Source: a bacterium
Lineage (GTDB): Bacteria > Electryoneota > JAOADG01
Length of the DNA stretch: 64,000 nucleotides
Reading direction: 5' to 3'
Assembly (NCBI GenBank): GCA_963681965.1
Contig: OY820579.1
Coordinates: forward strand, 2,256,835-2,320,834
Part shown: positions 3,961 through 48,878 of the stretch, piece by piece
How positions within the stretch are numbered: the stretch's first letter is position 1
Layout of the letters: every line of letters starts with the position of its first letter
Made by a program: the position numbers and the translations under genes
The notes under the pieces: generated by a model
Told to the model about the DNA's origin: nothing
Databases searched by the model: none
The model's input: only the letters and a program-made list of their open reading frames with translations

Positions 3961-4515
3961 ATGAATATCGACTCAACCACCATCGTCTTTTCGATCTTAT
4001 CCATCGTCGCGATCTTTTCCGCGATCATGGTGATCTCGCGCGCGAATCCGGTCGCGAGCGTATTGTGGTTGGTGTTGAATTTCTTTGCGCTGGCAGGCTT
4101 GTATGTCCTGCTCGGTGCGCATTTCCTCGCGGCGGTACAGATTATCGTATATGCCGGTGCGATCATGGTGTTGTTCCTATTTGTGGTGATGATGCTGAAC
4201 CTGAATACGATCGGTTCATTCGAACGCAGCGGACTCGCACTGCGTGTCGTGGGTGCGTTGATTGCCGGACTGATGTTGGTGATGATCGCGTTCATGGTGC
4301 GGCAGGATGTCAATTTCACGACGCCGGTTTCGCACACGCAATTTGCGATGGGAAGCGCCAAAGCGATCGGACTCGTGCTCTTCGATCAGTGGACGTTGCC
4401 GTTCCAGATTGTCGGTGTCATGATGTTGGCAGCCATCATCGGTGTCGTGGCGTTGGTGAAGCGCGAGCATGTGTCGAAGCCGCTCAGCGATCCTAGCGGA
4501 GGATCGGAACAATGA
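3961..4515 (+). CDS. nuoJ: NADH-quinone oxidoreductase subunit J
   Basis: Hydrophobic NuoJ-like protein; start moved from TTG (track 3940) to ATG at Met8; stop overlaps nuoK start (ATGA). Confidence 0.85.
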
Positions 4516-10040: not shown

Positions 10041-10528
10041 TTCATCTTTCCCAACACCCATCTTTTCGGTGGCGCAGGCCTCCGAGCCTGCGATTCGCTT
10101 CTTTTAAGTATGTCGGAATTTATTCCGACTCTTTTTTTTCTTTTGGCGGTTCGCGAACCGCCCGTTTTTCTTTCTTTTCCCACCTCCCAATACCTACCAC
10201 CCACCACCCATCATTTCCGTAGGTCAGAACTTGTTCTGACCATCTCCGGTATCTTTTTCTGGTATCTAGACCTGTCATTGCATAGCCGACGTAGGCTGCT
10301 TTGGTAGCGGCGGACTTTAGTCCGCGTATTGATTTTTACAAGATTCTACAAGAATTGCGGACTAAAGTCCGCCACTACCAAAAGATGGGTGTTAGGGAAT
10401 AGGTGGTGGTAATCGGGAAAAGGTTAAAATAAGGGAGGGCGTATGCACCCACCCGTTCTTTTTATTTTTTATCCATAAATACACTTGATTTGTTTTGATC
10501 TTACCGGTAAATTACAACTGTTGTATAT
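10041..10528. repeat. REP/MITE-like cluster downstream of nuoN
   Basis: gtcggaatttattccgac, ggcggttcgcgaaccgccc, gtaggtcagaacttgttctgacc, and two inverted copies of ggtagcggcggactttagtccgc around a ~35-bp AT-rich core (MITE-like). Confidence 0.8.
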
Positions 10529-15252: not shown

Positions 15253-15909
15253 TTTACCGTTCCTCTCCCGGAGAATAATTGATTATTCGAACAATTATGG
15301 TGCATTGGATCAAGTTCTATGCCATTTCCATGGTTATTCATAGATATTGGTTCCCATGTCTAAGTGAACCTATTATCTATTGGTAGCGGCGGACTTTAGT
15401 CCGCTTTCAGTTATTTTATTCGTAGTAGCGTATAGTATACGCCGATGGATCAATCATGAACGCACCGTTGTTACAAGAATGGCGGACTAAAGTTCCCCGC
15501 TACCAATCTTTTCCCCCATCACCCAAAACCCACTACCTACCACCCATCCTGTCGGTGGCGCAAGAGTCCGAGCATCATCTTTTCCGTAGGTCAGAACTTG
15601 TTCTGACCACTTTTTGTTTTTTTTCTCTCTTTTCCTACCACCCACCACCTATTCCCTACCACCCATCATTTCCGTATGTCGGAATTTATTCCGACTCCTC
15701 TTGTGTCCCTCAAACACGGGCGGACGCGGGAATCCGTCCATACAGGATACAAGATTCAGGAAAAACGCAGGCTGAAGCCTGCGGCTACGCCCAAGACAGA
15801 AAAAAAAAGCGGACTAAAGTCCGCCGCTACCCTTCTTTTCCCCATCACCTACTACCCACCACCCACCACCCATCCTTATGGCACTGCCTTTGCTCCATTA
15901 CTGGTAAGA
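15253..15909. repeat. REP/MITE-like cluster
   Basis: ggtagcggcggactttagtccgc inverted pair, gtaggtcagaacttgttctgacc, gtcggaatttattccgac, cgcaggctgaagcctgcggctac. Confidence 0.8.
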
Positions 15910-19332: not shown

Positions 19333-19748
19333 TTTTAAGTAGGGGCGGGCTCCCATGCCCGCCCGTTTTTGTATTTTTTTTTTCTTGCAGTACTGCCGAT
19401 CTCCGAATCGGCATTCTTTCACAGTAGGGGCGACCCTCCGCGGTCGCCCATTTTTGTGTCTTTTTTTATCCTCTCCCACCACCCAATACCTATCACCCAC
19501 CACCTATCTTTTCCGTGGGTCGGAATTTATTCCGACTCCTCTTGCGTCCGAAAAAGATGCGGGCGACCGCGGAGGATCGCCCCTACTACAAGATACATGA
19601 TTCAAAAAACGCATGCTGAAGCCTGCGGCTACAAAGAAAACAGAAATAAAAAAAGCGGACTAAAGTCCGCCGCTACCAAAATCTGAATACACACAAAAAA
19701 AATCGCGGGGTCGTTACAACCCCGCGATCTTCGATGAGATGACTGAAC
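19333..19748. repeat. REP-like hairpin cluster
   Basis: gtaggggcgggctcccatgcccgcccg, gtaggggcgaccctccgcggtcgccc, gtcggaatttattccgac, gcaggcttcagcatgc-type hairpin, gcggactaaagtccgccgctacc. Confidence 0.8.
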
Positions 19749-22700
19749 TTAATTCTGAATCGTGCCGTGTGCGCTCAATTGATTCAGAACTTCCGATGCG
19801 GGCGTGCCCTGCGGAATATTCCGAATAATTCGATCGAACGTATCGCCGTCGCCTAACCATGCCTTCACCTGATAGTGCATCGACGGGCTGTGACGAACTA
19901 CGCCGAGATGCTGCGCAACTGTAGCCGACGTGGTAAAGGTCAAGAAGTAGTAGGAAGCTTCGTTATACGGATTCGATGCATTGAATAGCACCAGATAACG
20001 GGCGACCGATACCGGGAAATTGTTCACCGATTGCGTCACCGGGCTCCAGCTCAACGATGCATCATCCACGGCGGTATTCACAATCAGGTTAGCCGGTGCT
20101 TGCGGCGTCGTCTTGCCACTGCCGGTTACTTCGACTGTGAAGGTGTCGATATCGACGCCATTCGCAATGAACTTAAACGTAGCAGTCTTCGTTCCGGCAC
20201 CTTGCGGTTGGAAATTAATCGAAGCGCTGACGCTGCCATTCGCTGGAATAGTCGGATCGGCTGGCATCGTTACCGTGAAATCGGCATTCGCGCCAGTGGC
20301 AGTAACCGGAGTCAATGAGACATTACCGGTATTTGCCAACATGATGTTTTGACTGGTGCGGTTCCCTGCTTCGGTTAGGTCAAACGAAACTGTCGAAGTC
20401 GCTACCCGGAAGTATGCACCGTTACCGGTACCCGTCAACGGAATGGCAATTGCCGTGTACGGCGAGCTGAACGTGATGTTCAGCGTATCGTAAACAGATG
20501 CAATCGAGTCGGGGGTAAAGGCGATCCGGAACCGCAATGAGTCCGTACCGGTCGCAGTTGAATCGCTGTTCGACAACGTCACCGTGAACCGCGGATTGTT
20601 GTGAGTAAAGGTCAATGCCTTAATCGATAATTGACTGCGGCTGGCAACTGCCACCGTTTGATTCGAGGAAGTCGTACCTACCGGAATGCCACTGTAAGTC
20701 AACGTCGCCGGATTGTAGGATACACTTGGATTCGCCCGGATCGTGAAACTGGTCGAAGAGATGCGATAGATCCACGGATAGTTGACCGCACGGATACGAA
20801 TGCGGGCATTCGTCGTGACCGGTCCCGTGATATTCCACAACACTATCTGCTGCGACGAGGGGAATGTTCCAATCGTTTCCCAGGCACCCGACGAGAAGTT
20901 GCGATTCATTTCAATTAACACGTTACCCGGAACATTCGAAACCGACCACTTGATCGTATCGCCGGACAACACGTTGAATACTTCGCCGCCAATCGGCTTC
21001 GACATATTGATGGCACGCGAAGAGATGCGGAAGTTCGTATCGGAGATATCGGTCGCAATCGGATAACTGACACTTCGGATGCGGACGCGCGCAGTCGTTG
21101 TCGTCGATCCTGCCGGTACGGGATAGGACAGTTGTCCCGCCGAAGCTGCTACTGTACCGATCGTATTGAATGTGCCGGTCGGATAGCTGGTGTTCAATTC
21201 GACCACCACATTCCCCGTCACGTTCGCTGACGTCCACCGTACTGTGGTCGTATCGTAGATGTACCAGTATTCGACGGCGTTGGGACTCGTCACGGTAATC
21301 GTGCGTGCCGCTAACGTCAAGTTGCCGCTGGTGGAATCCATCAGGGTCGGATAGGCAATACTGGAAATACGATACCGGAAATTGGTTACCGGTGTGCCAG
21401 TCAATGTCCAGATAAAACGCTGGTTGGATGCTGCAGTCGAACCGATAATTTGCCACAATCCGGCAGGATAGTTGTTGTTGTATTCCACCCGAACGTTACC
21501 GGTTAAACCGACCTGACTCCAGCGAACGGTATCGGCATCGCCAATATACCGGGTCGCCCCTGCAGCCGGTTCAAGATAAGTCAGCGAGCGATCCAAAACA
21601 GCCGTGTTCGCCGCGGTTTCCGCTGTCTGCGGATACGTTAATGATCGGACGCGGAAACGGGTATTGGTCGAAGCCGGTCCGGTGATTTGCCACGGGAATT
21701 GCAGATCGCTGTAAGTCGCAGTTCCGACATATTCCCAGGTTCCCGATGGATAGTTGCGATTAATTTCAATTGTCACTGCGCCTAGCAAACGCGTGCCAGT
21801 CCAAGCGATCGTCAGCGAATCGCCGGTGAACAGGGTATCGTTGCCCGCAGGGGTCGTCATGGCAACACTACCCAACAAGTCGAAGGTCAACAAGTCGCGG
21901 TTCGTGCCGTCGGTGCGCATGGCATAGAGCACGTAATCGTTGCGATACATCGAAACGATTTGACCGGATGATTGATAAAAACTGTCAACTGGAGTAATGC
22001 TGTTGAGATTGGAAATATCGTAGGTAATAATCCGATTTTGGTTCGTTCCTACATTCACGCCGAGGTACATGTAGTTACCGTCAATGCAATAAGAAGTCGG
22101 ATATCGTGCCAATCGGGCAATCAATACCGGAGCGATTGGAACCGAAACATCCCATACCAAAATACCTTGATATGTTCCCGAATTGACCTGCATATACAGG
22201 CGATTGCCTTCCAAATGCAACTGAATCGGGATCACATTCAATGTGTCGATTGAGGCTGCCAATGCCGGTTGTGCGGGATTGGTCTTGGTAAATACTTTAA
22301 AACCGTTGTCGTGCGAGCAAACCACGAGGTTGTTATTGGCATCGATACTATTCCAGTTGCCGGTACCGTCGTTGTAAGTCGCAGTCACGGTCGGCGAATT
22401 CAACGTCGTTACGTTGACAGTTCGCATTCCGTAATATCCACCGGCTACATACAGGTAGTTGCCAAATTTCACCATGTTCTGCGCATCGTTCGCACCAGTC
22501 TGCGAGCCCGATTGCGTCGGCGACGGATAGTTCGTACCAGCCATATTGTAGGTGCGGATACCGGCGGTATTCACTGCGGAATAGCCGTTATTACCGTCGT
22601 TGATGAATTGGAAGTACGACAAAGTAGTACTGGTGTAGTACCGGTTGAAACTAATATTGTCCGGTGGGGTCGCATTGTAAATACTAATGCGGTTCCCATT

Positions 22701-24745: not shown

Positions 24746-25700
24746 TGTAGGTCAGAACTTGTTCTGACCACCTCTTGTGTCCAAAATTGATGCGGGCGGG
24801 CGCGGGGACCCGCCCTTACTGGAAAATTTGTACGATCGTATTGCTGTAGGTCAGAACTTGTTCTGACCACCTCTTGTGTCCAAAAATGATGCGGGCGGGC
24901 GCGGGGACCCGCCCCTATTGGAAAATTTGTACGATCTTATTGCTGTAGGTCAGAACTTGTTCTGACCACCTCTTGTGTCCAAAAATGATGCGGGCGGGCG
25001 CGGGCGCCCGCCCCTACTGGAAAATTTGTACGATCGTATTGCTGTAGGTCAGAACTTGTTCTGACCACCTCTTGTGTCCAAAATTGATGCGGGCGGGCGC
25101 GGGGACCCGTCCCTACTGGAAAATTTGTTCGATCTTATTGCTGTAGGTCAGAACTTGTTCTGACCACCTCTTGTGTCCAAAAATGATGCGGGCGGGCGCG
25201 GGGACCCGCCCCTACTGGAAAATTTGTACGATCATATTGCGGTAGGTCAGAACTTGTTCTGACCACCTCTTGTGTCCAAAAATGATGCGGGCGGGCGCGG
25301 GGACCCGCCCCTATTGGAAAATTTGTACGATCGTATTGCTGTAGGTCAGAACTTGTTCTGACCACCTCTTGTGTCCAAAAATGATGCGGGCGAGCGCGGG
25401 GACCCGCCCCTACTGGAAAATTTGTACGATCATATTGCGGTAGGTCAGAACTTGTTCTGACCACCTTTTGTGTCCAAAAATGATGCGGGCGGGCGCGGGG
25501 ACCCGCCCCTATTGGAAAATTTGTACGATCGTATTGCTGTAGGTCAGAACTTGTTCTGACCACCTCTTGTGTCCAAAAATGATGCGGGCGGGCGCGGGGA
25601 CCCGCCCCTATTGGAAAATTTGTACGATCGTATTGCTGTAGGTCAGAACTTGTTCTGACCACCTCTTGTGTCCAAAATTGATCGGGCGGGGCGGGGACAG
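24746..25700. repeat. Tandem array, ~10 copies of a 99-bp two-hairpin unit
   Basis: Unit gtaggtcagaacttgttctgacc...gatgcgggcgggcgcggggacccgcccctactggaaaatttgtacgatcgtattgct starts at 24746, 24846, 24945, 25044, 25143, 25242, 25341, 25440, 25539, 25638; only point differences between copies. Confidence 0.9.
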
Positions 25701-25828
25701 AGGATACAAGAAAGAAAAACACAGGCTGAAGCCTGCGGCTACGTTAGTCAAATACGCGGACATTAGTTCGCCGCTACGAAAAAACGGCACATCGGATGAT
25801 GTGCCGCTGAAAAATTCATCGGGAAGAA

Positions 25829-31391: not shown

Positions 31392-32217
31392 CGGTGTTTC
31401 CTCCTCTTGGTGAACAGTCCCGGTATGAAACGAAAACTTCCGACAAAAAAACGCAAGCCGAAAATCAATCCGCTCAGTCGATCCGGGGGCAGCGGTTGCA
31501 CCTGTTTATGATCTCGCCACTGTAGCCGCGAAAGTTTCGAGAGAATCTCAATACTACAGTTACAATATGCATTCAAAGCCGGATAAAAGCAATATGCAAC
31601 AACGATTGCGAATGAAAATCAATCTTGATAACACATTTGCACACAACTTCCCAGAAGTGATTACTATTTATACAGATATTAGCTACTTACCGGAGGTAAA
31701 GGATGCTCTCTGCAGATGATCGGTTGATTTGTCGTTGCGAGGACTGCAGCGAAGGAACATGCGAAGCATTTCCGAAGCGGAAGGACGAAGCAATCTATCT
31801 TGAATCCTGTTTTCTCTAGTAGGGGTGGGTCCCCGCGCCCGCCCGTTCTTGTATCTTTATTTCTCTTTTCCCAATCCCCAATGCCTATTTCTCCATCACC
31901 CATTCTATGCGTCAGGCGCTGCCTGCCGCTTGGGGCGAATGCGATTCGCCCCTACGGAAAAAACGCGGACTAAAGTCCGCCGCTACCATGATGAATTGTC
32001 AGGCTGAAGCCTAACTTCCGATTTCAAGAGACAGATACACCGAACCTGCGATTCGCTTCCTTTCCGTAGGTCAGAACTTGTTCTGACCATTTCTTGTATT
32101 TTTTTTCTCTTTTCCCACCACCTACAACCCACTACCCACCACCCGTTTGGTTGATTTGTCGTTGCGAGGACTGCAGCGAAGGAACATGCGAAGCATTACC
32201 TCAGTTTCTTCCCGACG
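31392..32217. repeat. REP-like hairpin cluster
   Basis: Two copies of the ~70-nt cgttgcgagg element, gtaggggtgggtccccgcgcccgcccg, ccgtaggggcgaatcgcattcgcccc (reverse), gcggactaaagtccgccgctacc, gtaggtcagaacttgttctgacc. Confidence 0.75.
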
Positions 32218-33017
32218 GTGCATCTCTCCTACAAATTGAGCAAACTAAATGAATTGCAATTGAGTTACAGTCGGCGCGTGCGGCGACCGGATGGTGAGGA
32301 TTTGAATCCATTCCCGGAATATCGCGATCCGTTGAATGTCTGGGCGGGAAATCCGAAACTGTTGCCGGAATATGTGAATGTGCTGGAACTCGGTTGTCAA
32401 TATCTGAATGGCGGATTGATGTTGGTACCGGCGCTGTTCTACCGCAACACGAATAATCGCTTTACCCGGGTCACGCAGACACTGCACGATTCGATCGTCT
32501 TGACGACCATGGAAAATCTGGCTTCCGATCAATCCGGCGGTATCGAATTGAATGTGTCGTGGAATCATCAGAAATCGTTTTCGCTTCACGGATACAGTAG
32601 TGTGTTTTTCGATCAGATCGATGCCACCAATCTTAACAATACAATGGAAAGAAGAATGTTACGACGTGGACCAGCAATATCACGATGGATGTCAATTTGA
32701 CCGAGACCAGCCGGTTTCAACTCAACTCGAATTACAATTCGGCACGATTGACGGCGCAAGGGAAAAACAAACCGTCGTATTCGCTCAATTCCGGTTTTCG
32801 ACAAGAATTGTTTGAAGGAAAATTGACGATCACTGCGACCGTCACGGATATCTTCAAGACGATGAAACGGGAATTCGAGTTGAATATCCCGACGCTGCAG
32901 CAAACATCGGTGAATAAGCGCGACTCGCGCGTAATGTACGTCGGATTGAATTATCGCTTCGGTTCGCAGAAGAAGAAAGCGAAAGAAGACCAGATTAAAT
33001 ACGATGACGGGTTGTAG
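32218..33017 (+). pseudogene. Remnant of an outer-membrane beta-barrel protein gene (C-terminal ~265 codons, frameshifted)
   Basis: No signal peptide or N-terminal domain; reading frame switches near 32650-32700 between track ORFs 32218-32700 and 32685-33017; ends with beta-barrel-like ...YVGLNYRFG; 5' side abuts the repeat cluster. Confidence 0.45.
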
Positions 33018-33040
33018 AATAGATCGCCGTAAAATGTATA

Positions 33041-33068
33041 CGGGCGCTTTGCAGCGCCCGTTTTTTTT
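33041..33068 (+). terminator. Rho-independent terminator
   Basis: cgggcgctttgcagcgcccg hairpin followed by an 8-T run. Confidence 0.6.
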
Positions 33069-33134
33069 GTGTTTCTTACACTCGTTCGAATTTCGTGGTG
33101 AAGTGCCGCAGGATCGGTGGTTCGTAGGTGGTCC
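33068..33134. repeat. Left direct repeat: diverged duplicate of the tnaA 3' end (putative att remnant)
   Basis: gtgtttcttacactcgttcgaatttcgtggtgaagtgccgcaggatcggtggttcgtaggtggtcc is ~92% identical to 36341-36405; on the minus strand it still encodes ...TYEPPILRHFTTKFERV-stop. Confidence 0.7.
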
Positions 33135-33201
33135 TTAAAAGCTAGTTCAACATTCGAACTTAGAATATCAATTAATTGATTGCTAGATAATCTGAATTGG
33201 A

Positions 33202-34011
33202 TTAAATGTAAGGATCGTCCAATTTGCAGTAACTAGCATCAAGAATATTGGCTTTACAACAATAATTCATTAACCAAGTTACATGTTCTTCATCGATGGG
33301 TGGGATATCCTTCTTGAACAAAACGGCTCGATCCAATCTTCCGATCCACTCTCGCGCTTTAGTTACTAATTGAACCTCGATGATACGCGATTCTTGGATC
33401 ATAATTAAAAAATGGATAGCACGATAATTAGTGTCGTGGGAGTACAATTTCGGATTGAAATAATAATTTCTGCATCGATAAATTTTTCGATAAAAGTCAC
33501 GCCATATTTTTACTCCTAATTGCGCAAGTTCGTTAGGAGTCTGGACGACTATTCGAAATCGAACCAAGTCCCAAATATCGTATAAATATTCAGGATAATA
33601 CCCTAACCGTTTTCGTTTCTCAATCGATTTTGCGATTGATTCATCTGATTTCAAGTTACCAAATAAATGTTCGAGCGGAACTTGCGATTTCTCGATATAA
33701 TCAAGTAACACGAGTCGGGAAAAGTCAAAGACTTTCTGTTTCTCATTTTTATCCATCACAAAATCAGACCAGTCAGCGATATTTTGACTAATTCGAAAGC
33801 CTGTTTCCGGGATAACTATTAACTTTCTAGATAATAGATCTACTGACTGATCGTGAAGCAATTGAAAATTGGGATCTGCTGAGTTTGTTCCATTCTCAAT
33901 TTTATTGCCTAACTCTAAAAATTCGGTTCGATCTTTGTCAGAAAGTGAGCACCAGAATTGTTTGAACCATTTGTCATGGCACTCGCAGTATTCGATATGT
34001 CTTTGTAACAT
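33202..34011 (-). CDS. RelA/SpoT-like (RSH/small alarmone synthetase-like) nucleotidyltransferase-fold protein
   Basis: Ordered motifs with RelQ-like spacing: SIAKSIEKRKR, DIWDLVRFRIVV, NYRAIHFLIMI, IEVQLVTKAREW...LFK. By-eye match, not HMM-verified. Confidence 0.5.
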   Translation of the reverse strand: MLQRHIEYCECHDKWFKQFWCSLSDKDRTEFLELGNKIENGTNSADPNFQLLHDQSVDLLSRKLIVIPETGFRISQNIADWSDFVMDKNEKQKVFDFSRLVLLDYIEKSQVPLEHLFGNLKSDESIAKSIEKRKRLGYYPEYLYDIWDLVRFRIVVQTPNELAQLGVKIWRDFYRKIYRCRNYYFNPKLYSHDTNYRAIHFLIMIQESRIIEVQLVTKAREWIGRLDRAVLFKKDIPPIDEEHVTWLMNYCCKANILDASYCKLDDPYI

Positions 34012-34031
34012 TGAGCACTCAAAATTATTAA

Positions 34032-34652
34032 TTACGAGAAATAGATATCATTCTTTGCAAATGTTGATCGAACAGAGTCCTTTCTCTCAACAACAGCAAT
34101 TTTTTTTCCTTTCTTATGAAGTAATAGAAATTCTTTGTTTACTAAATCTTTAATGCGATAATACATTTCACTCGGATTTTGAACTTTGTCAACTTGCCAT
34201 CTCTGAAAATTCGTAAATAAATCTTCAAGAGTGATCTGATCTAATGAATACTCGTATATAAATTCAATTATCTTTTTCTGAGTAAAAGATAATTTTCTAT
34301 AAGAATCCACTAATTTCAGTTCTTGATCTGCAACACTAGGAGCACTCTCGATGGGTATTTTAGATACTGATGTAACAGAATAAAGCGAATATTCGTTAGG
34401 TTTTTGTTTTAAATTAGATTTATGTGAAAGATATGTGAACAAAATCACGAAAAATAATCCAATTAATAATTCAAACACACCTATAAATACTATTAACCCA
34501 TTTGGGTGAGCACGATAAATTATATTATTTGTTTGATTATGCCATTCGAAAATTCCTAATAAAATCATAACTGTTCCACCAAGAACAAATATTGCATCGA
34601 TTCTTGCCTTAAAAAGACTTTTTAAAAGTTCGAACATAATGATCCCTTTCAA
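34032..34652 (-). CDS. Membrane protein: two N-terminal TM helices plus ~110-aa C-terminal winged-helix-like domain (paralog 1)
   Basis: Shares with the next gene the pattern ELLK..KA..D.I.VL.G..M.LLGIFEW..Q.NNII.R.HP and a C-terminal block ...YYRIKDL...G..IAV.E. Confidence 0.55.
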   Translation of the reverse strand: MKGIIMFELLKSLFKARIDAIFVLGGTVMILLGIFEWHNQTNNIIYRAHPNGLIVFIGVFELLIGLFFVILFTYLSHKSNLKQKPNEYSLYSVTSVSKIPIESAPSVADQELKLVDSYRKLSFTQKKIIEFIYEYSLDQITLEDLFTNFQRWQVDKVQNPSEMYYRIKDLVNKEFLLLHKKGKKIAVVERKDSVRSTFAKNDIYFS

Positions 34653-34703
34653 AATAATAAATTAGAGATTAATCGCTTTAAATTGAAATGAATTACCGGT
34701 TAA

Positions 34704-35249
34704 TTAAGAGCACAATATATTCTTTTTTTCCAAAGTTAACTGAACAAAACCAATTTTCTCAATGACAGCTATATTTCTTCCAATATTATGAAGATTAATG
34801 AAACCATTATATTTTAGATCTTTAATTCTATAATAAAATTCGTTTTTGTTTTGAATAATTCCAGGTCTCCAGGCTTGAAAACCATCGAAAAGCACTTCGA
34901 GAGAAATTTCATTTAATAAATGTTGGTAAATAAATTGTACAATCAGCATTTGTGTTAATGTTAAATTGTGATAAGATAAGACTAACTGTTCTTCATAGTC
35001 TCGTTTAGGACTTGCCATCTCCGAATGAACTCTCTGTTGAATATAGAAATTAATAATATAGAGTGAAATACCAATTAATGTTAACAGAATCCCAATAAAA
35101 ATGACAAAACTATGAGGATGTGTTCGAATAATAATGTTATTTAATTGACCATTCCATTCAAAAATACCAAGCAGCAACATCGAAGAACCAACAAGCACTA
35201 AGATGACATCAACTTTTGCTTTAAGAACGCCTTTAAGTAGTTCTAGCAT
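34704..35249 (-). CDS. Membrane protein: two N-terminal TM helices plus C-terminal winged-helix-like domain (paralog 2)
   Basis: Paralog of 34032-34652; start overlaps the stop of the upstream NTase gene (35243-35249). Confidence 0.55.
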   Translation of the reverse strand: MLELLKGVLKAKVDVILVLVGSSMLLLGIFEWNGQLNNIIIRTHPHSFVIFIGILLTLIGISLYIINFYIQQRVHSEMASPKRDYEEQLVLSYHNLTLTQMLIVQFIYQHLLNEISLEVLFDGFQAWRPGIIQNKNEFYYRIKDLKYNGFINLHNIGRNIAVIEKIGFVQLTLEKKNILCS

Positions 35250-36130
35250 GATAAAGCTCGTCTTGGAAGAGAAATATGATTTTTTTCGATAAGTACAATT
35301 TGAGTACTAAATTTTATCTTTACTCTTATAGCGCAATCGGCTGAAAAGCAATTTGGGTGGTTGCCCTTAGTCGACTCAAATAAAAGAATATTTTCTTTCA
35401 TATGAATTGGAAGCGATGATTGTAATGGCATTTGATAATAATTTTGGACGTACTCCTTCATACAACAAAAATAAAAATAGTATGCTGTGGCTTGTTGAAT
35501 CGGTAGAGTGCTGACTTGCAGTGAATCAATAATTTTGTGTTCTTTTAACCACCAATCACATAAAACAAGAAACTCGTAATCAACCAATCCCCCAGCACCG
35601 CTTTTAAAATCCCAATAATGTGGCGATTTTGGGTCGTCGTATTCATCGCTGCGATGTGGGTTTCCGAGGAAGAATCTGTGCAAATTATCGAATGAAGTAT
35701 TTTTCAACCAATACTTGAATTTACTAATAAATTCTTGGTAGATCGACTGGTTTCCTGCAAGAAATCGAAGGTGAGGAAAAGAGACAAGTAATGGAAAAGA
35801 GTAGGTGTCGATTGCTTTATCGAGAGAATTAATGATGAAATGCGTTGGATGATTTGGTGTGTATCGTTTAAGTAGCGATTTTATCAAATCGCGATCAATG
35901 TTTGGTGATCGATAAAGAACGAAGAAATCAATATCGGAAAACTGATTTGGATGACCGCGAGCGTAGCTTCCCCTTAAACAGATAGCAAAAGTTTGATTAT
36001 TCAAAAATGAAGAAATATGCTCTTCGGAAAGATAGGCGTGAAGTTGTTCAACTCGTTTTAAGAATTTCTCTTGATATGTCAGCGATAATTTTAAGAATGT
36101 TGTCGGGTTGTTTGTGATAAACATAAACAA
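35243..36130 (-). CDS. Nucleotidyltransferase with Pol-beta-type motif and GlnD/GlnE-like second motif
   Basis: GSYARGHPNQFSDIDFFVL (GS-x10-DxD) and ~120 aa later DFKSGAGGLVDYEF, resembling the GlnD/GlnE uridylyl/adenylyl-transferase signature. Confidence 0.55.
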   Translation of the reverse strand: MFMFITNNPTTFLKLSLTYQEKFLKRVEQLHAYLSEEHISSFLNNQTFAICLRGSYARGHPNQFSDIDFFVLYRSPNIDRDLIKSLLKRYTPNHPTHFIINSLDKAIDTYSFPLLVSFPHLRFLAGNQSIYQEFISKFKYWLKNTSFDNLHRFFLGNPHRSDEYDDPKSPHYWDFKSGAGGLVDYEFLVLCDWWLKEHKIIDSLQVSTLPIQQATAYYFYFCCMKEYVQNYYQMPLQSSLPIHMKENILLFESTKGNHPNCFSADCAIRVKIKFSTQIVLIEKNHISLPRRALSC

Positions 36131-36300
36131 TACCTATGCAAACTTCATTCGATCACAGTAGTAAAAAAATCCATAAATAGTTTCTTCATGAGGCAATTAG
36201 TATTCTTGTAAAGATAATAATAAACTAAACAAATTCAAAATGGTATTTGGTAAAATATAAACAATCAACTTACATGTTGACGAGATATCTAAAAAATAAT

Positions 36301-40263: not shown

Positions 40264-41532
40264 TTATTTCACGACTACGATGCGGTAGAGGTTCCCGTGT
40301 CGGACGATCGAAACCCGGAATGGGAGTTTCTGCCACTGCTTAAGCGCATTAGTCAGATCGCTGAGTTCGCCGGAAGCTTCCGATCCGTCGATCGTCAATT
40401 TCTCCGCAGTCGGGATCGCAAACGATTCGTCCGCTTTATAGCTTAAGAACGGTAGATAGAGGGTAAATCGATCCGTCGGTGCATCGTATTTTCCGTTCAG
40501 CGAATCGACCTTACCGCCTTGCATCTTCCAAGCAGCTTTCATCGCCTCGGTTGGATCGTGGTCGGCAATGATTTGAACCATCGCTTCGCCCGACGAGATC
40601 GAGACTAACTCCAGTTTTCCACCCGATTCGGCAATTTGAAGGATCTTTGCAATCAATCCGCCGGGGCTGTCCGAAGTTTCTACCGGTGTTATGTGAGTGA
40701 CGGTATCGGGTATCGAGGTTGCAGCACTTCCCTTCGCACTATCCGTCAGCGGTACTGTATGTGGTACGGCTTTCGGTCGATTGTGGTAGCGATTGCTGTA
40801 AATCATCGCAACTGCACTCAAAATTGCGACAATGGCGGTGATTATGATGACCCGTTTGATCAGGCGGGCACTCTTCGAAAAGTCGAAATTGTGCTGGACC
40901 GGTTCTTCGGTAATGGTCTCTTCCGGAGGAGTAGATCCGGGCTTTTCCGAAAGAGTGTATACCGGTTTTTCGGGAACTCCGGGGAATTGATGCGCCGTCG
41001 GTTGCGTGACCGATAGCGATTTGAAATCGAATGACAACACTTCGCTGATTGGTTGATCGGGCAGTGCAAACCGGATTGCCGAAAGATTGTATCCGTGTTC
41101 CAGCAGGACGCCTTTCCAGAACGCCACTACCGCCGGACGCATCAGTGCGACATCGTGCATGCCGTCGCCGCGATCGCGATAGAGATAGAGATAATAGTCG
41201 AGATCGGTTTGCAGTTGTTTCGATAGTTCCCACGTGATTTGTCGGGGAATTTCCTCTTCCGGCAACGACGGTGTCGGTATTTTCGTCGCCATTCCCCAGG
41301 ATGGCGGTAACCACACTTCGAGATCGGTCGAAGCGGGTGTCGCAGTCGTGAAGATGGTCGAGAGATAAGTTTTGAGTGCCTGAGTTGCAATCTCGGATTT
41401 GGTGATGATTGCTTCCAGCGGGAATGAGGCTTCGGTGGCTGCCGTTTCGACGAATTCGAGGGTCTGTTCCTCACCCTGCAATTCGCCTAATACAAATTCG
41501 TTTTCCCGGACCCAGAGCACGGCAGTATTCAT
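40264..41532 (-). CDS. Hypothetical protein with one central TM segment
   Basis: 422-aa ORF, TM helix ...RVIIITAIVAILSAVAMIY...; no motif recognised. Confidence 0.45.
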   Translation of the reverse strand: MNTAVLWVRENEFVLGELQGEEQTLEFVETAATEASFPLEAIITKSEIATQALKTYLSTIFTTATPASTDLEVWLPPSWGMATKIPTPSLPEEEIPRQITWELSKQLQTDLDYYLYLYRDRGDGMHDVALMRPAVVAFWKGVLLEHGYNLSAIRFALPDQPISEVLSFDFKSLSVTQPTAHQFPGVPEKPVYTLSEKPGSTPPEETITEEPVQHNFDFSKSARLIKRVIIITAIVAILSAVAMIYSNRYHNRPKAVPHTVPLTDSAKGSAATSIPDTVTHITPVETSDSPGGLIAKILQIAESGGKLELVSISSGEAMVQIIADHDPTEAMKAAWKMQGGKVDSLNGKYDAPTDRFTLYLPFLSYKADESFAIPTAEKLTIDGSEASGELSDLTNALKQWQKLPFRVSIVRHGNLYRIVVVK

Positions 41533-43438: not shown

Positions 43439-44194
43439 TCAAGTTACCGGTTTTCGGTGTTGACGGTACGCAAGCCATAAAAGTAGTACGGTTATCCAAG
43501 GGAACCTTAATATTTCCAATAAGATCCAAATAATAATCCGGAGCGGGACCACTTTCATGATCAACGAAGACTCCCAGCGCCAGACACCTTCGACAAAATC
43601 ACCATCGAATGCCAAATCAAGTCGCTGCGGTTTTAATGGAAGTATTGCACAACCAATACCATAAAGAAAACCAATTTGAGCAGGATCCTCGCCTCCGAAT
43701 TGTATCCGGCAGCGGCACTCCTCGCAACTGGGTACTTTCAGCAGTCGACCGATCATCCGCAGGAATTGCTTTAGGATTTTTACAAATCGTTTCTGTTCTT
43801 CGACGATTAGTGCAAACCATGCGACTTCCGGTTCGGATTTGTCCGCGTTTTTTTTCTTCTGATCGGTGGATGGCGTCAGTTCATCTGATCCACCCGGTTG
43901 ATTTGGTTCCGATGGCGATGATTTTTTCTTGCCGAAACTGAAATTGATGTGAATACCCGTCGATTCCGGTTCCGGTTCGGATGGGGTGGTGATTGCTTTT
44001 CCATCGGATTCTACAGCCTTTGCTGGTTCAGTCGATTTTTTCGCGGGGAAGCTGCTGCGTGATTTGAACCAGAGCCATTGCAGTTCGAAGTAACCGGTTT
44101 TGTCGAGCAGAAAGAATCGAAAGCGCACCGGGAACGCCAAGATGATCGCGAGTACGATCACAATTCCCAGTAGAATTTCGAGGAGGAGCATCAT
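43439..44194 (-). CDS. Hypothetical membrane protein (possibly DUF2953-like)
   Basis: Start set to MMLLLEILLGIVIVLAIILAF after the tadA stop; low-complexity S/E/P/K-rich middle; family assignment tentative. Confidence 0.4.
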   Translation of the reverse strand: MMLLLEILLGIVIVLAIILAFPVRFRFFLLDKTGYFELQWLWFKSRSSFPAKKSTEPAKAVESDGKAITTPSEPEPESTGIHINFSFGKKKSSPSEPNQPGGSDELTPSTDQKKKNADKSEPEVAWFALIVEEQKRFVKILKQFLRMIGRLLKVPSCEECRCRIQFGGEDPAQIGFLYGIGCAILPLKPQRLDLAFDGDFVEGVWRWESSLIMKVVPLRIIIWILLEILRFPWITVLLLWLAYRQHRKPVT

Positions 44195-44700
44195 TCGAGT
44201 AGATCGTTTCCATTGTGAAGCGGTTTGGTGGCACCGGGAAGGCGTTTGCTGCGGAAAAAATTCTGCAACATTTCGGCACAGGCACCTTCGCGAATGCCGC
44301 CAATGACGGTGACTTTCCGCCCGAGCCTGCCGTCTTCGAGGAGATTGTAGAGACTGCCACAGGCACCCAGTTTCGGATCGGATGCACCAAATACGATCCG
44401 GTCGATATGGGCAAGCAGAATCGCGCCAGCGCACATCGGGCACGGTTCGAGAGTAGTATACAATGTACATCCCTCGAGCAACGGTTCGCCGAGCGCTTCG
44501 GCGGCGGCGGTGATCGCAATCATTTCGGCGTGCGCGGTCGGATCGCAGCCGGCGATGATCCGATTATAACCCGTTCCGAGCAGCCGTTCGCCGCGCATCA
44601 CGACGGCACCGACCGGCACTTCGTCGGCATCGAGGGCATATTGCGCCTGACGGAGGGCGCGCTCCATTCCGCGATCCAGTTCATTCATGTTGTGCAACAA
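44191..44700 (-). CDS. tadA: tRNA-specific adenosine deaminase
   Basis: Zinc-binding deaminase motifs HAEMIA and PCPMCAGA; 169 aa. Confidence 0.85.
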   Translation of the reverse strand: MLHNMNELDRGMERALRQAQYALDADEVPVGAVVMRGERLLGTGYNRIIAGCDPTAHAEMIAITAAAEALGEPLLEGCTLYTTLEPCPMCAGAILLAHIDRIVFGASDPKLGACGSLYNLLEDGRLGRKVTVIGGIREGACAEMLQNFFRSKRLPGATKPLHNGNDLLE

Positions 44701-46030
44701 CCCAATTCATTCATAGCGAGAATATAATCCGATGCAATCCGTTTTGGTAGCGGCGGAGTAAAAGAGGCCGTTTTTTTTTTGCGTAGGGGCGTATGGCATA
44801 CGCCCGAAGCGGCAGGCAGCGCCTGACGCCGAGTATGTCTCCTGATATGTAAACAAGAGGAGTCGGAATAAATTCCGACCTACCGAAAAGAAGATGCACG
44901 CAGGTTTGGAGGTCTGCATCACCAACAGGATGGGAGTTGGGGGTTAGGAGTTGGGAATTTGGGGAAAAGATCGGTAGCGGCGGACTTTAGTCCGCTCTAA
45001 GTTCTGCTTTCTTTGTAGCCGCAGGCTTCATCCTGCGTTCTTGTATCTTTTTTGATCCTGTATCCTGCAGTGGGGTGACCCTCCGCGAACGCCCGCTCTT
45101 GTATCTTTTTTACCCCAATACCCACAACCTACCACCCACCACCCATTTTTCGTAGGGGCGTATGGCATACGCCCGAAGCGGCAGGCAGTGCCTGACGCCG
45201 AGTATGTATCCTGATATGTGAACAAGAGGAGTCGGAATAAATTCCGACCTACGGAAAAGAAGATACTCGCAGGCTCGGAGGCCTGCGCCACCAAAGACAA
45301 GACACAGGAGGTGGTCAGAACAAGTTCTGACCTACGGAAAAGAAGATGCACGCAGGTTTGGAGGTCTGCGCCACCATCAGGATGGGAGTTGGGGGTTAGG
45401 AGTTGGGAATTTGGGGAAAAGAGGGGTAGCGGCGGACTTTAGTCCGCTCTAAGTTCTGCTTTCTTTGTAGCCGCAGACTTCAGCCTGCGTTTTTTTTCTG
45501 ATTATGACACAAGAGGAGTCGGAATAAATTCCGACCTACGGAAAAGAAGATACTCGCAGGCTCGGATGTATGCACCACCAACAGGATGGGAGTTGGGGGT
45601 TAGGAGTTGGGAATTTGGGGAAAAGAGGGGTAGCGGCGGACTTTAGTCCGCTCTAAGTTCTGCTTTCTTTGTAGCCGCAGGCTTCAGCCTGCTTTTTTTT
45701 TCTGATTATGACACAAGAGGAGTCGGAATAAATTCCGACATACTTCCTGACACAGGAGGTGGTCAGAACAAGTTCTGACCTACGGAAAAGAAGATGCACG
45801 CAGGCTCGGAGGCCTGCGCCGCCAAAGACAAGACACAGGAGGTGGTCAGAACAAGTTCTGACCTACCGCAACACGATCCTCCTATCACCCAATCTTTTTA
45901 GTAGGGGCGGACCCCCGTGTCCGCCCGCTCTCTTTTTTTTTATTCCCCAACGCCCACAACCTACCATCCACCACCCATCTTGTAGCCCCCGCTGGCGGGG
46001 GTTGGGGGTGGTCGCGCCGGTAGGCGCGTG
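44701..46030. repeat. Large BIME-like mosaic of REP hairpins with partly duplicated 200-300-bp blocks
   Basis: Repeated gtcggaataaattccgac, gtaggtcagaacaagttctgacc, gtagcggcggactttagtccgc, gtagccgcaggcttcagcctgcg, gtaggggcgtatggcatacgccc and G-rich gatgggagttgggggttaggagttggg tracts. Confidence 0.8.
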
Positions 46031-47054: not shown

Positions 47055-47204
47055 TCGATCTCCAGTGACGAACACAAAATTTCTCAATTCAGTCGGATTT
47101 TGAGTTTCAGAGTGTTAAAAATGTGGTTATTATATAACACTACATTCTGCACTGCATCTTCGCCAATCCCAACCGATCCATATTTGTTATTGATGAGGTT
47201 TATT

Positions 47205-48878
47205 ATGAAACTCAAGTTATATCTATTCGGAGCGATCGTTCTGCTCCTCTCCTTGGCGCTATTCGGTTGCAACAAGGAAGATTCGAAAACAACCGACAAT
47301 GGCATTGACACAACCGCTGCGGCGGCAAAAGTCAATGAAGCGAATCATCAGTTGGAATTGACGTTACAGTCGATTTTCTCCGGTCCGGAACCGGAACAGC
47401 CTTCCGACATCGATCTTTCGACACCATACGGTCTGTATATCCAAGCATTGGAAAAAGACCCGAACAATAAAACCGCAAACTTCGGCGCCGCGATTTTGGA
47501 GATCGTGATGATCTCGCGCGAAGCGCGCACCAACCAACTATTCACGGCATGGCGCGATTTCGGCGAACGCGACAGCATATTCGAAGTGGCTGCTCCGGCA
47601 CTGTTTATGCGTAAACCGACAACCGTACAACCGGCACTCAAATTCGATGCGCTCGCGATGCCGTTATTCCCATCGCTGCTGATGTTGAACAATCCAGCGC
47701 GAATTCAGGAACTTGCCGTCGTCGATCCGACTATCGCCGATCTGCAGAATTTCGCCGCCACATCGTTTTTACCGCGTATCAGCACTGCAATTTCGCGCTT
47801 GGAAGTCGTCACTCAGGATACCTCGTTCCGGTTTATCGTCACTGCGACTATGCAGAACGATACGCGCGCCGATCCAGTCATCCTCGATTTGACTGAAATC
47901 TATGCGACGCTTGCCGGACTGAATGCCATCAAGGCAATGTTCCTGATGTTCACCTCGTACAATCTGGATCCCGGTGGATTCACCGGCGCTGCCATGCAAT
48001 CGGCGATGACGCGCAGCTCCAATTTCTTCGCGCTGACCTCGACCGGTTCCTCCAATATGCCGGCGGCACGCACTGCGTGGCTCACCGCGCTCGATCGCCT
48101 CAATACGGCGATCTATCGCTTGGAACACGAAACCGGAAATCAGAGCCAACACTTGCTCAAGATCGCCGAACAGGATGGCGTCAAACGTAGCGAACTCGAC
48201 TCGATCAAACTCTATTTGCCGAAGGTTCGCACTACATTCGAAACTTCGCAATTGTGGAATGTGAAAGTCCACTCCGGCGAAACGCACCACTTCGAAGATG
48301 TCCGCTTTTCGCTGAATTCGGTCTTTACCAGCCCGATTCAGAACATAAAGACACTCTTCCCGATGTACGATGTCGTAATGGATACCGTCGAATATCATCG
48401 ATCGACTTGGATCGAGGATACGGTCGTCGCGACTGTCAGTTTCAACGGACAGCTCTATTGGAATCGCAGTGTAACGTATCGCAACGGCGTTGCCAGCAAC
48501 CAGAATTCCTATCAATCGATGGGTGTTCCCGCATTCGATACCTATTGGAACAACAAGATCGCATTGTACCGGAATAAACCGCAAGCGGAACTCCACATGT
48601 GGTGTAATGCTTACTTCAGTGCTTCCGGGTCGCACACGATCAAGGCACAATTCGAAGTCGATTATTACGATATCCACTATCGGACACAGCCGATCATCAC
48701 TTGGGCAGACACCTCGTTTGCAACGTGGCATATTCCCGATCCGACCATGGGCGGGCTATTGCCGGGTATGACCGACAGTGAAATGAAACGATTGATGGAT
48801 ATGCAGGCATCCGATTGGACGCGAACCATGACGATGCATTTCTGGGATGACGAAGCCGATTCGTCGTCTGCGCGGTAA
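47205..48878 (+). CDS. Hypothetical lipoprotein
   Basis: Signal peptide with lipobox LALFGC; start set to MKLKLYLFGAIVLLL; stop overlaps the next gene's start. Confidence 0.55.
   Translation: MKLKLYLFGAIVLLLSLALFGCNKEDSKTTDNGIDTTAAAAKVNEANHQLELTLQSIFSGPEPEQPSDIDLSTPYGLYIQALEKDPNNKTANFGAAILEIVMISREARTNQLFTAWRDFGERDSIFEVAAPALFMRKPTTVQPALKFDALAMPLFPSLLMLNNPARIQELAVVDPTIADLQNFAATSFLPRISTAISRLEVVTQDTSFRFIVTATMQNDTRADPVILDLTEIYATLAGLNAIKAMFLMFTSYNLDPGGFTGAAMQSAMTRSSNFFALTSTGSSNMPAARTAWLTALDRLNTAIYRLEHETGNQSQHLLKIAEQDGVKRSELDSIKLYLPKVRTTFETSQLWNVKVHSGETHHFEDVRFSLNSVFTSPIQNIKTLFPMYDVVMDTVEYHRSTWIEDTVVATVSFNGQLYWNRSVTYRNGVASNQNSYQSMGVPAFDTYWNNKIALYRNKPQAELHMWCNAYFSASGSHTIKAQFEVDYYDIHYRTQPIITWADTSFATWHIPDPTMGGLLPGMTDSEMKRLMDMQASDWTRTMTMHFWDDEADSSSAR

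Follow-up and report, generated by a model that had tools for sequence, protein, structure and literature searches.

The window analysed in this work is a stretch of 64 kb that corresponds to bases 697,304-761,303 of ERZ21878129 contig_1, an ENA metagenome contig of 4.34 Mb. Together with about 10 kb on each side, approximately 84 kb of this 4.34-Mb source genome were covered. The genes in the window are those of an ordinary chromosome, i.e., the nuo operon, glycosyltransferases, trigger factor and a tRNA-Leu, and a T9SS C-terminal sorting domain is present in many of the proteins that the window encodes. Four long open reading frames of 592, 501, 422 and 343 amino acids (47100-50383, 40264-41532 and 43439-44470) have no Pfam match at E<=0.001. 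A low-G+C island is present at 32000-36200 (0.37 compared to ~0.50 elsewhere), which contains two adjacent fragments of a TonB-dependent receptor/OMP beta-barrel (32218-32700 and 32685-33017), a RelA/SpoT-domain protein (33202-34011), a nucleotidyltransferase-domain protein (35243-36130) and two open reading frames without Pfam hits. This island may have been acquired, or it may be a defence/toxin locus that disrupted a receptor gene.

The window carries an unusually heavy load of palindromic repeats. A census of perfect hairpins (stem of at least 6 bp, loop of 3-8 nt) returned 224 in the 64 kb compared to ~78 in shuffles, and 96 of the 224 are tagged, i.e., their stem is preceded by GTAG within a few bases or followed by CTAC, compared to 4.3 of 78 in shuffles. 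Consensus searches for GTAG-tagged REP units revealed at least seven families with ~100 units in 64 kb, and 12-mers present three or more times cover ~10.5 kb, or 16% of the window, mostly in the larger gaps between long open reading frames. The main families are the following:

Family A: 16 units, GGTAGCGGCGGACTTTAGTCCGC
Family B: 14 units, GTAGCCGCAGGCTTCAGCCTGCG
Families C, Cp and Cq: 27 units combined, GTAGGGGCG...CGCCC types
Family D: 21 units, GTAGGTCGGAATTTATTCCGAC
Family E: 22 units, GTAGGTCAGAACTTGTTCTGACC

The 23-mer of family A, here called module A, occurs in 16 copies on both strands of the window with up to three mismatches, whereas 100 shuffles gave 0.00 copies, and its 16-nt palindromic core occurs 17 times with 0.07 expected. 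It consists of an unpaired (G)GTAGC head, a G+C-rich stem of 6-7 bp (GCGGAC/GTCCGC; canonical 7-bp form GGCGGAC/GTCCGCC) and a TTTA or TTCA loop. GTAG is found directly 5' of the palindrome in all 16 copies, 2-3 nt from the stem, and none of the 16 copies in the window lies inside a called gene. A single module A is predicted to form a 6-bp hairpin with the GTAGCG head unpaired and a dG of -6.3 kcal/mol. A scan of the whole window with Rfam matched a tRNA only, which places the REP modules outside the curated RNA families, and a literature search for the module sequences returned nothing relevant. Six of the 16 copies are arranged as three inverted pairs, listed here with arrowheads giving the orientation of a unit:

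10303-10325, plus strand: module A, left arm of dimer 1, GGTAGCGGCGGACTTTAGTCCGC, with GTAG tag, 6-bp stem and TTTA loop
10326-10356, plus strand: spacer of dimer 1, 31 nt, AT-rich, gtattgatttttacaagattctacaagaatt, homologous to the spacers of dimers 2 and 3
10357-10379, minus strand: module A, right arm of dimer 1, with one mismatch (GTAGTGG), followed in its own orientation by AATTCTTGTA
53811-53886, plus strand: dimer 2, A> at 53811-53833, 30-nt spacer, A< at 53864-53886 (loop TTCA)
15382-15504, plus strand: dimer 3, A> at 15382-15404, 77-nt spacer, A< at 15482-15504 (two mismatches)

The original prediction had placed an element of ~80 bp with ~23-bp inverted arms at 10300-10385, with the same architecture at ~53812-53890 and ~15385-15505. 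This element is real, with an exact span of 10303-10379, and both further copies were recovered at the corrected positions 53811-53886 and 15382-15504, the latter with a core of 77 nt. All three are head-to-head homodimers with GTAG pointing outward. The 23-nt arms match each other at 22/23 positions in dimers 1 and 2 and at 21/23 in dimer 3, and they can be lengthened to 26 nt (TTTGGTAGC.../...GCTACCAAA), so that 10300-10382 reads TTT-GGTAGCGGCGGACTTTAGTCCGC-(31 nt)-GCGGACTAAAGTCCGCCACTACC-AAA. The spacers are homologous (alignment A1), starting with (G/A)TATTG.TTTT and ending with TTACAAGAAT(G/T). The 77-nt spacer of dimer 3 is the 30-nt spacer with ~47 extra nt. With distances of 30, 31 and 30+47 nt between the arms, the pairs are not spaced at random. 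The motif ttacaagaat, which had been described as part of the core, is literally present in dimers 2 and 3, while dimer 1 has ctacaagaatt beside its right arm and ttacaagatt just upstream of this. The conserved part of the doublets begins with TTGGTAGC and ends with GCTACCAA / GCTACC(A/G)A, and directly outside of it the flanks are unrelated. The extra ~47 nt in dimer 3 include another GTAG-tagged palindrome, GTAGCGTATAGTATACGCC, at 15425-15443. A nested insertion was considered for this long spacer, and it is suggestive only, because the extra palindrome is unique in the window.

As single-stranded DNA, each doublet is predicted to fold into one long hairpin with a dG of -30.6, -31.7 and -31.4 kcal/mol and z values of -10.7, -12.8 and -6.9, respectively. 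If all 16 A units are placed at random but confined to the ~10.5 kb of repeat-bearing DNA, the mean number of head-to-head pairs within 100 bp is 0.52, and three or more occur with P=0.01. The perfect 22-mer is present in every solo A unit and in all three left arms, while the right arms each carry 1-2 substitutions. The doublets share a right-arm tail, CATTCTTGTAA, and their specific spacer, both absent from the solo copies, which suggests that they descend from one ancestral doublet, copied as a whole to three unrelated positions. No target-site duplication consistent across the doublets was found at any of 81 boundary shifts, and a lone 4-nt flank match is at chance level, as 30% of random sites equal it. 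No transposase of any kind was detected in the 64-kb window.

The interpretation as a miniature element was borne out insofar as the doublet is a discrete unit with conserved ends and spacer at three unrelated loci that can form one long hairpin, and with these properties it looks like a miniature non-autonomous element. The accompanying contrast to a simple REP did not hold, as each arm is itself a GTAG-tagged palindromic REP, which stands alone in ten of the 16 copies. Likewise, the anticipated biology of terminal inverted repeats and target-site duplications was mistaken, and the absence of such duplications is what a Y1/HUH (RAYT) mechanism predicts.

The ten solo copies represent six independent loci, so that the doublets account for three of nine independent A loci. 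Their positions and surroundings are as follows:

15809-15831, minus strand: solo module A; a T9 run and module B (15766-15788, minus strand) come next; left end of the composite 15586-15831
19655-19677, minus strand: solo module A, followed by a T-run and then by B (19610, minus strand), C (19561, minus strand) and D (19515, plus strand)
31965-31987, minus strand: solo module A, with a Cp-type REP 9 nt later (31933, minus strand)
44973-45866, plus strand: REP cluster containing solo A units at 44973, 45425 and 45629, each with B 19 nt after it
50496-51334, plus strand: tandem array with 2.6 copies of a 321-bp unit, order per copy F< A> B> C> D< E<
50550, 50861 and 51182, plus strand: A units of the 321-bp array, one per copy
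54407-54655, plus strand: another, independent occurrence of A>B>[C-type]D<[G-rich]E<, its A unit lying at 54407-54429

Module B follows nine of the ten solo A units in tandem at a distance of 12-22 nt, and the solo A unit is the first element on the left of a composite with the order A>B>(C-type>)D<[G-rich]E< and a length of ~170-270 bp, which is found at five or more independent loci (alignment A2), including 15586-15831 (minus strand), 19505-19687 (minus strand), about 44973-45866, 50550-50790 and 54397-54663. The edges of the composite are formed by outward GTAG tags, with A on the left and D or E on the right. Several of the solo copies originate from tandem duplication rather than from transposition; besides the 321-bp array, a 204-bp tandem repeat (2.2 copies, 45301-45743) lies within the cluster at 44973-45866.

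It is to be considered if the unit that replicates is the single REP or the whole ~170-270-bp composite, with the A-A doublets being incidental by-products, for example of two insertions at one hotspot or of an ancestral doublet copied by recombination. The position of B 12-22 nt behind nine of the ten solo A units, the same order and orientation at no fewer than five independent loci, the outward tags at the composite edges, the perfect conservation of the solos next to the mutated right arms of the doublets, and the 321-, 204- and 99-bp tandem arrays, which represent spread by duplication, are all in agreement with this explanation. However, the spacer and the tail that are specific for the doublets are missing from the solos and point to a common doublet ancestor, and head-to-head pairs are also formed by other families of this genome, with three cases of Cp>(38-48)Cq<, all within the nuo operon, and two of Cq>(101-102)Cq<. 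This explanation is regarded as rather unlikely.

Further elements are shared among the REP units. Many are preceded by T-rich sequence (..CTTTTCC-GTAG) and carry the tail CTTGTR on their 3' side. The octamer TTCTTGTA occurs 19 times with 1.3 expected, e.g., at 10347-10354, 15472-15479, 53854-53861 and 50749-50756, and its CTTGTA/CTTGTG variants are located 2-20 nt 3' of A (right arms only), B, D and E units. It may constitute a common cleavage or target motif of the REP system. A G-rich stretch, GATGGGTGGTGGGGAATGGGTGGTAGGTG..GGGAAAAG, adjoins many REP units in either orientation, e.g., at 10380-10425, 44925-44970, 50705-50742, 54175-54200 and 56854-56944, where it forms a 38-bp tandem repeat, and it may be able to form G-quadruplexes. 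At 24746-25698 a unit of 99 bp is repeated 9.6 times in tandem with 95% identity, each unit containing a single E-type GTAG REP plus a palindrome rich in G+C, GCGGGCGGGCGCGGGGACCCGCCCC.

RAYTs (REP-associated tyrosine transposases) are Y1/HUH enzymes of the IS200/IS605 type, which act on single-stranded hairpins and leave no target-site duplication. Neither the window nor the ~10 kb adjoining each of its ends yielded a RAYT/Y1 transposase, and these flanks also contain no further A units. Six-frame open reading frames of the window and of all loci collected for comparison were searched with an HUH/Y regular expression and with a home-built RAYT HMM made from 120 RAYT homologues, and a RAYT was only obtained in L037, a locus from WWE3. 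None of the best 120 homologues of this WWE3 RAYT lies on the 4.34-Mb source contig. These negative results speak against the RAYT explanation given below, and its key partner is putative in this genome.

In other organisms, the REP class to which module A belongs (GTAG-Y, 7-bp stem, TTYA loop) flanks RAYT genes at three of three loci, i.e., L037 (WWE3), L052 (Scalindua) and L053. The L037 enzyme is a Y1 transposase of 163 amino acids (351-842; PF01797, E=3e-12) with the motifs HLHQLI and YIFENPV, and it clusters with a RAYT named in a candidate division WWE3 MAG. Positions 1-1000 of L037 constitute a compact REPtron, in which GTAGCGG-type REPs, arranged as head-to-head heterodimers, flank the RAYT on both sides. 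Module A itself is found 5 kb from this RAYT. At the two other loci, which are on long contigs, the RAYT has GTAG-(C/T)-stem-TTYA REPs on each side with GTAG outward. All three RAYTs score 100-110 bits against a cutoff of 80 for the NCBIfam 'REP-associated tyrosine transposase' equivalog and below the IS200 cutoff, and their sole sequence match in the PDB is E. coli TnpA-REP (4ER8). Among the GTAG-Y-N7-TTYA-N7 units of all fetched loci, 34 of 46 distinct ones keep six or more of seven Watson-Crick pairs compared to 0.6% in an untagged control, and 12 or more different perfectly paired stems exist, which constitutes covariation. No variation is seen in the head, in stem pairs 1 and 2, in the closing C-G pair or in the TTYA loop. 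Covarying stems with a constant head and loop are the pattern expected of a hairpin that is recognised by a protein. Based on the REP anatomy and on the REP-RAYT association in these other organisms, we infer that a RAYT is present in this genome and mobilises these REP units.

The exact module A was additionally found in three GTDB genome contigs, with one hit each in unrelated MAGs, and in 42 JGI metagenome contigs. It is usually present there as a single copy and nearly always as GTAGC-GGCGGAC-TTTA-GTCCGCC-AT, and it often lies head-to-head with a different unit of the same format, such as GTAGC-GGAAACC-TTTA-GGTTTCC, ...GGCAGGC..., ...GGCGGGC-TTCA... or module B. A recent cross-phylum transfer, suggested by the identical 22-mer, was downgraded, as the exact string was searched for and only ~4 stem positions vary, so that its recurrence in a very large metagenome collection needs no recent transfer. 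In a far-reaching reading, the composite would be mobilised as a unit, a super-REPIN, by one or more RAYTs, and the A/B class would have spread between phyla (CPR/WWE3, Omnitrophota, Planctomycetota and this lineage). We consider this doubtful; if true, a spread of A/B between phyla would contradict the view that REPIN-RAYT systems are almost solely inherited vertically. One of the exact 23-mers, at 4327-4349 of the Cytophagales MAG contig CAXTIG010000050.1, lies in frame within an FG-GAP/VCBS-type repeat protein and encodes ..NDGRGGLKSAATTALP.., equal in length to the repeat beside it, ..NDGKGGFTDQTTRLAS... Because of this equal length it is not a simple insertion; it represents either a REP-like conversion inside a gene or a coincidence.

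The nuo operon allows comparison with related genomes, the nearest NuoN homologues being 65% and 56% identical. The nuoG-H, nuoH-I and nuoK-L gaps measure 723, 303 and 236 bp in the window and are filled with REP clusters, compared to 0-53 bp in the relatives, and the nuoI-J gap measures 500 bp, whereas the 56% relative has 5 bp there and the 65% relative 322 bp with a small ORF. Between 880 and 5060 the nuoG/H, H/I, I/J and K/L clusters, viewed against the loci L048 and L051, consist mostly of Cp>Cq< pairs and D units. As the genes downstream of nuoN differ in the closest relatives, the comparison there refers to the intra-operon gaps. The essential nuo operon is invaded by REPs without being broken up. 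The window has 1.5 tagged hairpins per kb compared to 0-0.05 in the relatives with 65% and 56% NuoN identity, which are nearly free of tagged hairpins and have compact nuo operons, indicating that the REP expansion is lineage-specific.

These relatives also bear on the possibility that the repeats are not mobile DNA but functional host structures, i.e., terminators, mRNA-stabilising hairpins or protein-binding sites, that are kept by selection at each locus. In the solo A units at 15809 and 19655 (both minus strand) the stem is followed by T7-T9, giving a terminator-like score, and terminator-like sites are enriched between 10 and 20 kb of the window (26 compared to 11.7 in shuffles). It was furthermore reported that REPs are mostly located downstream of genes and function at the level of RNA (Di Nocera et al., 2013, PMC3733652). 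Some solo copies with T-runs probably double as transcription terminators. In contrast to these two solos, the three doublets are not canonical intrinsic terminators, as on either strand the T-run comes before the hairpin. One doublet is located in a gap between two genes that start divergently (15252, minus strand, and 15925, plus strand), and the gene ending at 19749 has its own terminator with a 16-bp stem upstream of the A unit. As the relatives lack the elements even within the same operon, the elements are unnecessary for expression of these genes. A primary role of the repeats as host structures appears very unlikely.

Classical bacterial MITEs, such as the Correia elements and Nezha, derive from DDE-type insertion sequences. 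That the doublets are such deletion derivatives, with terminal inverted repeats of 23-26 bp, mobilised in trans and generating target-site duplications, is highly improbable, for although they resemble MITEs in their small size of ~80 bp, AT-rich core, near-perfect inverted termini, sharp boundaries and intergenic multi-copy occurrence with three unrelated loci, target-site duplications are absent at all 81 boundary shifts, each terminus (doublet ends TTGGTAGCGGCGGAC) is an autonomous GTAG-tagged hairpin typical of REPs that is also found singly, the same arm pairs with different hairpins in other organisms, and in the 64-kb window neither a DDE transposase nor a parent insertion sequence is evident.

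We consider it likely that the doublets are GTAG-REPs in a REPIN arrangement that fold and are copied by a RAYT, the single or composite form being the more common one here. The single-stranded unit would fold either as two small hairpins or as one long hairpin. A RAYT encoded elsewhere in the genome would recognise the hairpin together with the GTAG tag, and it would cut and rejoin single strands, so that sharply bounded copies would arise at new intergenic positions, free of target-site duplications. The composites of different GTAG-REP families, A>B>(C>)D<[G-rich]E<, would spread at least partly by tandem duplication. In descriptive terms, the doublet is best described as a REPIN-type head-to-head dimer of a presumably new GTAG-REP family, 24 families of the superfamily having been described (Di Nocera et al., 2013, PMC3733652).

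REPINs were described in Pseudomonas fluorescens SBW25 as two inverted REPs that form a hairpin and that are associated with a RAYT, and they are predicted to be better conserved as doublets than as singlets (Bertels and Rainey, 2011, PMC3116915). Both REP dimers and REPINs were proposed to be non-autonomous elements mobilised by RAYTs (Bertels and Rainey, 2011, PMC3116915; Di Nocera et al., 2013, PMC3733652). The doublets resemble REPINs as inverted REP pairs with a short spacer and one long hairpin, by their extragenic location, sharp ends and absence of target-site duplications, by their occurrence over chance (three compared to 0.52 expected, P=0.01) with homologous spacers, and by the higher-order tandem clusters that include flanking DNA. 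However, the doublets are in the minority here, with three compared to ten singlets (six independent loci; a small sample from ~84 kb), the singlets are no more decayed, whereas each right arm of a doublet shows 1-2 mismatches, and a cognate RAYT was not found in ~84 kb of this genome. The host also differs, being an uncultured T9SS-bearing lineage, whereas the host of the SBW25 system is a gammaproteobacterium.

Members of the GTAG REP superfamily are units of 20-40 bp that form a stem-loop with a short loop and a stem of 6-13 bp. Within the superfamily, head-to-head dimers typically have conserved spacers of 20-100 bp, head-to-tail dimers are rare in most genomes and the common loops are TY or CMA (Di Nocera et al., 2013, PMC3733652). 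The repeats of the window share with this superfamily the unpaired GTAG at one end, a stem of 6-9 bp, a short loop, a high intergenic copy number, the coexistence of families and head-to-head dimers with conserved spacers in this range, as well as heterodimers, 'hybrid' dimers, tandem-reiterated clusters and REPs within genes. They differ in the loop, which is TTYA, and in that the most common arrangement of module A is the head-to-tail heterodimer A>B>. With the E. coli REP/BIME system and TnpA-REP they have in common GTAG/CTAC-tagged palindromes that often form inverted pairs, and 4ER8 is the only PDB match of the RAYTs associated with this class. The sequences are unrelated, though, and BIME dimers of E. 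coli join REPs with different loops (Di Nocera et al., 2013, PMC3733652).

Work on REP/REPIN-RAYT systems has dealt almost exclusively with Proteobacteria, while here a clear GTAG-REP system is found in an uncultured lineage. Its most noteworthy features are the REP density, the ordered composites and the operon invasion. The expansion is recent and massive, with the nearest sampled relatives (56-65% NuoN identity) lacking the repeats. This provides a natural before/after comparison for the effect of a REP invasion on operon expression and genome architecture, and the system allows one to ask if the replicating unit is a single REP, a doublet or a multi-REP composite.

The repeats also affect assembly and annotation. 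The only other assembly (Logan) ends 44 nt past nuoN, and short-read contigs of the same organism (L055 and L005; Logan, ERR12015701) stop within tens of bases of REP clusters; REPs thus fragment short-read assemblies of this genome. They furthermore give rise to spurious gene calls. A gene call of 195 amino acids in the ENA annotation (25135-25722, minus strand) lies wholly within the 99-bp array and has only short, scattered Pfam matches below the curated cut-offs; for these two reasons it is probably a spurious open reading frame. Some gene calls for the RAYT of L037 (184-aa cluster members) run upstream through the REP.
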